A stretch of 64,000 bases of DNA from Escherichia coli (GTDB taxonomy: Bacteria; Pseudomonadota; Gammaproteobacteria; Enterobacterales; Enterobacteriaceae). The translations under genes were made by a program, and so were the position numbers. Every line of letters begins with the position of its first letter. The first letter of the stretch is position 1. The notes under the pieces were generated by a model. The model was not told the DNA's origin and did no database searches. It worked only from the letters and a program-made list of their open reading frames with translations. Shown here in pieces: positions 37,651-38,109 of the stretch. Where the stretch lies: NCBI RefSeq assembly GCF_050920415.1, contig NZ_CP169309.1; one strand, given 5' to 3'.

Positions 37651-37683
37651 AAAAAAACCGCAATCTGTGAAACATATTGCGGT
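37651..37683 (-). terminator. Rho-independent terminator of the tRNA-fMet operon
   Basis: On the minus strand, stem ACCGCAAT / ATTGCGGT followed by T7, immediately 3' of the last tRNA copy. Confidence 0.75.
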
Positions 37684-37702
37684 TTATCAGCATCATAAGT
37701 GT

Positions 37703-37779
37703 TGGTTGCGGGGGCCGGATTTGAACCGACGACCTTCGGGTTATGAGCCCGACGAGCTACCAGGCTGCTCCACCCCGCG
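37703..37779 (-). tRNA. tRNA-fMet (initiator, CAU anticodon), copy 1
   Basis: Reverse complement is CGCGGGGTGGAGCAGCCTGGTAGCTCGTCGGGCTCATAACCCGAAGGTCGTCGGTTCAAATCCGGCCCCCGCAACCA, matching E. coli initiator tRNA from memory; encoded CCA. Confidence 0.95.
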
Positions 37780-37812
37780 TCACCGTACTGCTTTACTTCA
37801 TCAAATTTTGAT

Positions 37813-37889
37813 TGGTTGCGGGGGCCGGATTTGAACCGACGACCTTCGGGTTATGAGCCCGACGAGCTACCAGGCTGCTCCACCCCGCG
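37813..37889 (-). tRNA. tRNA-fMet, copy 2
   Basis: Identical 77 nt sequence, 110 bp downstream of copy 1. Confidence 0.95.
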
Positions 37890-37922
37890 TCACCGTACTG
37901 CTTTACTTCATCAAATTTTAAT

Positions 37923-37999
37923 TGGTTGCGGGGGCCGGATTTGAACCGACGACCTTCGGGTTATGAGCCCGACGAGCTACCAGGCTGCTCCACCCCGCG
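37923..37999 (-). tRNA. tRNA-fMet, copy 3
   Basis: Identical 77 nt sequence, 110 bp period. Confidence 0.95.
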
Positions 38000-38032
38000 T
38001 CACCGTACTGCTTTACTTCATCAAATTTTAAT

Positions 38033-38109
38033 TGGTTGCGGGGGCCGGATTTGAACCGACGACCTTCGGGTTATGAGCCCGACGAGCTACCAGGCTGCTC
38101 CACCCCGCG
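38033..38109 (-). tRNA. tRNA-fMet, copy 4
   Basis: Identical 77 nt sequence, 110 bp period; promoter-proximal copy. Confidence 0.95.

Follow-up and report, generated by a model that had tools for sequence, protein, structure and literature searches.

Initiator tRNA is usually encoded in Escherichia coli by four genes in total, those of the metZWV operon and a single metY. In a 64,000-nucleotide stretch of E. coli DNA, the whole of which is referred to here as the window, a first-pass annotation pointed to four identical tandem tRNA-fMet genes at the place where K-12 carries three, and it attributed the extra unit to a misaligned exchange between repeats. This locus raises the question of whether the fourth gene is real, how it was acquired and whether it matters to the bacterium. 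The window is 100% identical to positions 963191-1027190 of the record of E. coli MFDS1022581 (NZ_CP169399.1), a Korean isolate from animal-source food. The comparisons described below indicate that it very probably carries the metZWV operon in a rare four-copy allele produced by misaligned recombination or slippage, an outcome that is recurrent and real but ordinary. The operon itself is well known, and the RefSeq annotation already lists four tRNA-Met genes for this allele.

Structure of the array and identity of its genes

In the assembly, the array was resolved by ARAGORN into four tRNA-Met(CAT) genes placed on the minus strand at 37703-38109 (407 bp, with a period of 110 bp), and the anticodon cat was found at position 35 in all four. 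Each copy was also matched by the Rfam tRNA model RF00005 with 61.4 bits, against a gathering score of 29, and Tandem Repeats Finder reported a period of 110 bp, 3.7 copies, 99% matches and a score of 813, far beyond chance. The 77-nt copies proved to be mutually identical, and identical also to metZ, metW and metV of MG1655. Taken together, the ARAGORN, Rfam and Tandem Repeats Finder results and the identity of the copies confirmed the four identical tandem genes and the 110-bp period described by the first-pass annotation. The interval that it had delimited, 37651-38109, corresponds to the terminator plus the array, with its start at the last base of the terminator U-run.

In the direction of transcription, the array begins with copy 1 in the metZ, promoter-proximal position (38033-38109, minus strand), followed by spacer 1 of type A (ATTAAAATTTGATGAAGTAAAGCAGTACGGTGA; 38000-38032), copy 2 (37923-37999), spacer 2, which is identical to spacer 1 and therefore also of type A (37890-37922), copy 3 (37813-37889), and spacer 3 of type B (ATCAAAATTTGATGAAGTAAAGCAGTACGGTGA; 37780-37812), which differs from type A at one base. 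It ends with copy 4 in the metV position (37703-37779), the 3′ end of which was placed by junction mapping at the boundary of a variable segment. All three spacers are 33 nt long, and their comparison bore out the earlier description of spacers that are alike except for one base in the first of them: on the plus strand, the first spacer (37780-37812) contains ttttGat and the other two ttttAat, which on the tRNA strand corresponds to ATCAAAA versus ATTAAAA.

Bacterial initiator tRNAs are distinguished by a C1×A72 mismatch and by three consecutive G-C pairs at positions 29-31/39-41 of the anticodon stem (PMC3017606). The tRNAs of the array presented all of these features on a CAU cloverleaf, with C at position 1 and A at position 72, and with the pairs 29-41, 30-40 and 31-39 all present (G29G30G31/C39C40C41). 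Position 46 is occupied by G, as in the tRNAfMet1 type encoded by metZWV, versus the A46 of the tRNAfMet2 encoded by K-12 metY. The genes of the array are thus initiator tRNAfMet1 genes of the metZWV type.

The genomic position agrees with this identity. The tandem copies lie divergent from mltA, with csdAE-tcdA beyond it, and upstream of amiC, with amiC-argA-recDB on the other side, which is the synteny of MG1655, and an accessory operon is placed between the array and amiC. In MG1655, the locus holds three copies, as had been stated for K-12. The K-12 operon has the same 77-nt tRNA and the same 33-nt spacer types, and its 60-nt leader differs from that of the window by 1 base; it is set apart by its three copies in the spacer order A-B, against four copies in the order A-A-B in the window. 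Moreover, the B spacer of the window is slightly unlike that of K-12, and the K-12 terminator, together with the 72 bp downstream, is replaced in the window by a 5.6-kb accessory operon with a terminator of its own. The canonical three-copy state is thus not what the window presents; copy number is polymorphic at this locus and is no bar to its assignment.

A direct reading of the minus strand located the metZWV promoter at 38123-38150, composed of a –35 hexamer TTGCAT (38150-38145) and a –10 hexamer TATAGT (38128-38123) separated by a 16-nt spacer, with a GC-rich discriminator and then a short leader downstream of the –10 element. The function of this promoter is taken from published work (PMC3017606). 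At the other end of the array, an intrinsic terminator was found at 37651-37682 on the minus strand, formed by the stem CCGCAAU/AUUGCGG followed by U7, for which an RNA fold of –16 kcal/mol was obtained (z = –3.4 versus shuffled sequences); it belongs to the accessory segment and its sequence is unlike that of the K-12 terminator. Both elements were placed through visual inspection, identity to K-12 and folding. The consensus promoter scan made no call at metZ, the –35 hexamer of which agrees with the consensus at 3 of 6 positions only, and the terminator scan missed 37651-37682, the loop of which exceeds the limit of that scan. Judging from the literature on K-12 transcription, we infer that the array is a single transcription unit of four genes.

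Small RNA genes were also recognized in the window, namely two matches to OmrA/OmrB (3334-3415 and 3531-3618, plus strand), GcvB beside gcvA (42433-42638, minus strand) and CsrB (60819-61178, plus strand). All of them occupy their expected core-genome positions and are ordinary in every respect.

Copy number in E. coli and the origin of the extra unit

The distribution of copy number was determined by megablast searches of 5,426 complete E. coli genomes, with E-value limits that pass only alignments covering a given number of full units, and arrays of at least five copies were scored as two offset placements of the four-copy query. At least two copies were present in 5,193 genomes, at least three in 4,999, at least four in 66 and at least five in 26. 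It follows that five copies occur in 26 genomes (0.48%), four in 40 (0.74%), three in 4,933 (90.9%) and two in 194 (3.6%), while the remaining 233 (4.3%) have one copy or were unmatched, at least 109 of them being proven single-copy. The queries for at least two, three and four copies returned 10,284, 5,091 and 92 placements, exactly as this histogram predicts. A synthetic single-copy allele, composed of the K-12 leader, one tRNA and the K-12 trailer, was matched end to end in 109 genomes, so that single-copy arrays are real. A search with the 407-bp array and without an E-value limit had yielded 2,255 genomes at a coverage of at least 80%, a count that is uninterpretable because offset repeat pieces were joined and four pieces were stacked on the single metY, and which was superseded by the counts above.

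The cross-genome comparison that the first-pass annotation had called for thus shows that metZWV copy number ranges from 1 to 5 in E. coli, and that the four-copy state, at 0.74% of the complete genomes, is rare without being unique. About 8% of the genomes have contracted arrays and 1.2% expanded ones, contractions being more frequent than expansions, and most of the four-copy genomes look like scattered singletons. No description of natural metZWV copy-number variation was found in the literature searched, and the histogram from one to five copies therefore counts as a modest addition to the description of the locus, not as a discovery.

The nearest relatives lack the fourth copy. Of the 17 genomes whose flanks are most like those of the window (98.8-99.3% identity over 20 kb), 16 carry three copies and one, RMDEC465, carries two, and uniformity of four copies within the lineage, which the first-pass annotation had named as grounds for refuting its reading, was thus not observed among them. 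The 20-kb query recovered no clonal relative among the complete genomes, the best match being N96 with 99.3%. When the flanks of the array were compared between N96 and the window (28000-37702 and 38110-48000 of the window), 23 differences were counted over 9.7 kb towards amiC and 109 over 9.9 kb towards mltA; this uneven divergence may reflect recombination with a breakpoint in the tRNA array or close to it.

The order of the spacers indicates which unit was gained. The usual three-copy array reads tRNA-A-tRNA-B-tRNA, where the A spacer begins with ATTAAAA and the B spacer with ATC. Both N96, the closest relative, and MG1655 have the order A-B, versus A-A-B in the window, which shows that the duplication affected the promoter-proximal unit. 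Compared with A-B, the extra 110-bp unit consists of copy 2 and an A-type spacer, although the new and the old A unit are indistinguishable. A product of the reciprocal type, a two-copy array with spacer B only, is present in RMDEC465, one of the nearest genomes. If two A-B arrays pair out of register by one unit and recombine in the first or second tRNA, exactly these two products are expected, A-A-B and a two-copy array with B alone. A and B differ by a single base in this lineage, so that the identity between adjacent units runs unbroken for about 109 bp, amply enough to support either replication slippage or an unequal exchange between sister chromatids.

In the proposed mechanism, an ancestral tRNA-A-tRNA-B-tRNA array would have gained one 110-bp unit, comprising a tRNA and an A spacer, by misalignment over one unit through unequal sister-chromatid exchange or replication slippage, the exchange having presumably occurred within the about 109 bp of unbroken identity between neighbouring units. 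The expanded operon would remain one transcription unit, with its promoter beside mltA and its terminator after the last copy, and would supply four tRNAs per transcript instead of three, so that the initiator genes would rise from four to five if the usual single metY is present. Both the A-A-B order and the nearby two-copy B allele fit the misaligned exchange between repeats that had been suggested as the source of the extra unit. All tRNA copies being identical, the crossover point is not locatable, and gene conversion or two-step routes may have been at work instead; the molecular route may have been either RecA-dependent or slippage.

The fourth copy could also be a tandem repeat mis-expanded in the MFDS1022581 assembly. 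Tandem arrays are classically affected by assembly errors, and MFDS1022581 is alone in its local sequence type in having four copies. However, a 407-bp array is easily bridged by single long reads, the extra unit measures exactly 110 bp and gives a clean A-A-B order without indels, and collapse is commoner than expansion among assembly errors. Moreover, 65 further complete genomes, produced by many laboratories and on many platforms, have alleles of this kind, among them the independently sequenced HS records. A mis-expansion is consequently considered very unlikely.

The other expanded arrays show that such gains have recurred. Among the four-copy arrays, the order A-A-B was found in FDAARGOS_1297, 2014C-3050 and strain 144, A-B-B, in which the distal unit was duplicated, in O55:H7 DEC5A, HS, A0 34/86 and SJ2D, and A-A-A in the K-12 derivative XL10-Gold, while the five-copy arrays of AR_0137 and ECKH-505 have the order A-B-A-B, a two-unit duplication. 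These arrays differ in their B alleles and occur in three downstream contexts, with amiC following directly, with the PTS operon or with a trailer that is not K-12-like. Given such varied spacer orders, B alleles and downstream contexts, the expansions must be independent events, and an origin of the four-copy genomes as one clade would already be contradicted by the spacer patterns. The 65 other genomes with four or five copies share with the window the locus, the tRNA and the unit-wise gain, but they have different backgrounds and other B alleles, and their alleles are not that of the window by descent.

Two of these arrays presented further peculiarities. In E. coli HS (NZ_CP185286.1), with the order A-B-B, copies 2 and 3 (511-587 and 621-697 of the extracted locus) carry a C-to-T substitution at gene position 66, which is standard position 65, turning the G49-C65 pair of the T stem into G-U. 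As both copies have the variant, the variant unit itself was duplicated, and two initiator tRNA sequence variants are encoded there. In the XL10-Gold record (NZ_CP081008.1, 1501-1907 of the extracted locus), the four copies in the order A-A-A, versus A-B in MG1655, would require either two events, gene conversion or an assembly error.

The five-copy set comprises 26 mostly clinical genomes of 4.7-5.0 Mb; in AR_0137 and ECKH-505, the array lies at 2891-3409 of the extracted loci and has a 34-nt B spacer. These two genomes come from different sources and share 99.98% identity over 6.4 kb, and near-identical megablast scores were obtained for all 26 five-copy genomes. These genomes apparently form one lineage, fixed for a duplication of two units, and the near-identity of the two genomes together with the matching scores of the 26 indicates that an expanded array can be inherited stably.

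Comparable variation has been described for other tRNA genes. The E. coli glyV/W/X/Y genes were reported in 'three or four identical copies', which was ascribed to within-genome duplication (PMC4539685); they resemble the present case in being identical tandem tRNA genes of variable number, but they encode an elongator tRNA at another locus. Similarly, spontaneous large tandem duplications that raise tRNA gene dosage, with fitness consequences, have been described in Pseudomonas fluorescens SBW25, as outlined in PMC7661048 and PMC10954465. As outlined there, those duplications were large-scale and selected in the laboratory after deletion of a tRNA gene, whereas the window shows the gain of a single 110-bp unit in a pre-existing array of a natural isolate.

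The accessory PTS operon beside the array

The segment that separates the array from amiC spans 32140-37702 (plus strand; 5,563 bp) and replaces 72 bp of K-12, according to the RefSeq annotation and to junction mapping against MG1655. It comprises a PRD antiterminator pseudogene and genes for a PTS EIIC component, a MalY/PatB-family protein, a KpsF/GutQ-family isomerase and a phosphoglycerate-dehydrogenase-family protein (RefSeq), and its operon is convergent with the tRNA operon. Homology to K-12 breaks off at 37703, where the last tRNA has its 3′ end, and restarts at the amiC stop codon (32139/32140), so that the array does lie exactly at the boundary of the accessory operon, as the first-pass annotation had stated. 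At least 80% of a query composed of the tRNA-proximal accessory gene, the array and mltA was covered in about 10% of the complete genomes. The segment probably corresponds to c3405-c3410 of PAI-CFT073-metV, a block annotated as "PTS system, maltose/glucose specific" that was reported to be retained in uropathogenic strains, E2348 and SMS-3-5 (PMC2831201); SMS-3-5 also matches the array/accessory region of the window.

The PRD-domain gene that heads the PTS operon (32397-33220, plus strand), of the BglG-type antiterminator-like kind, is a pseudogene with a frameshift and an internal stop, while in N96 the gene is intact, with 825 bp (4398-5222 of the extracted locus). The loss of this antiterminator gene means that regulation of the PTS operon may be broken in this strain. 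The tRNA-proximal trailer (…GATGCTGATAAACCGCAA…TTGCGGTTTTTT) resembles those of A0 34/86 and FDAARGOS_1297, where the downstream content differs, and the shared trailer suggests a common, older junction.

The adjacency of array and operon invites the idea that the extra tRNA copy arrived by horizontal transfer along with the PTS operon, since tRNA-linked islands frequently bring with them all or part of a tRNA gene. In its favour, the segment directly adjoins the 3′ end of the last tRNA, and islands are known to be associated with metV (PMC2831201). Nevertheless, the genomes with the closest flanks that carry the same accessory operon have three or two copies, and the duplicated spacer is of the promoter-proximal A type, far from the operon. 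Four-copy arrays followed directly by amiC, with no accessory operon, were in turn found in XL10-Gold, DEC5A, HS and strain 144. No integrase is present in the RefSeq annotation of 32140-37702, and a copy of the tRNA 3′ end is absent from the amiC-side junction, which sits at the amiC stop codon; in its annotation and at this junction, the segment thus lacks the integrase and the tRNA 3′-end repeats at the borders that characterize integrase-mediated tRNA-linked islands. This route is regarded as extremely improbable, the spacer type and the three-copy relatives with the same operon both speaking against import of the extra copy with an island. The adjacency is real, but it is not the cause of the copy number, because four-copy alleles occur in three downstream contexts.

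Initiator tRNA dosage and the meaning of the polymorphism

The duplication of a unit by misaligned recombination or slippage leaves the question of whether the additional gene confers any benefit. An extra tRNA per metZWV transcript should raise the supply of tRNAfMet. A reduction of tRNAfMet abundance led to relaxed initiation fidelity and slightly slower growth (PMC3017606), and the loss of initiator tRNA copies reportedly does harm in rich medium and is of benefit in poor medium (Samhita et al. 2014, as summarized in PMC9981150). No experiments with more than the wild-type number of initiator genes were found in the literature searched, and any influence of the extra copy of the window on growth or initiation would be extrapolated from these studies of reduced dosage.

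An adaptive origin, in which more initiator tRNA was selected, for instance because it favoured rapid growth in nutrient-rich niches or a higher fidelity of initiation, would draw on this same literature, both on the tie of initiator tRNA abundance to initiation fidelity and growth and on the harm of copy loss in rich medium and its benefit in poor medium, the latter as PMC9981150 summarizes it. The natural range of one to five copies and the persistence of the five-copy lineage in isolates of different sources also speak for it. On the other hand, the concentration of 90.9% of the genomes at three copies, with 1.2% above, fits stabilizing selection or mutation-drift balance better than frequent positive selection, the four-copy genomes mostly look like scattered singletons, and the published experiments that were found test no more than the wild-type gene number. 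Selection for the extra copy is thus judged unlikely, although it is compatible with misaligned recombination or slippage, the origin of the allele being the same in both cases. The broader proposal that metZWV is a tunable dosage locus, moved between one and five copies by unit-wise recombination and selected by niche, with the four-copy state of this food isolate being adaptive, appears equally doubtful, although it is compatible with the range of one to five copies, the recurrent independent expansions and the stably inherited five-copy lineage; if it were true, copy number would be expected to be higher where nutrients are rich and growth is fast, and lower in poor settings.

The preponderance of three copies (91%), the excess of contractions over expansions and the prevalence of singletons fit a mutation-prone array held near three copies, and they fit a near-neutral, transient variant as the four-copy state. 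The allele would most likely be a near-neutral or mildly conditional polymorphism that arises and disappears. The practical value of the finding is limited, the operon being a textbook one whose four-copy allele RefSeq already lists. It nonetheless calls for caution in strain engineering and in tRNA-adaptation calculations that assume four initiator genes, as is exemplified by the record of the K-12 cloning strain XL10-Gold, which has four copies at this locus and matters wherever K-12 tRNA gene numbers are assumed for that strain. The number of initiator tRNA genes at metZWV in E. coli is not fixed at three, and its changes recur independently. Consequently, natural isogenic-like backgrounds with two, three, four and five copies are available as material on which the claims of a trade-off between growth and fidelity that depends on initiator tRNA dosage could be examined.
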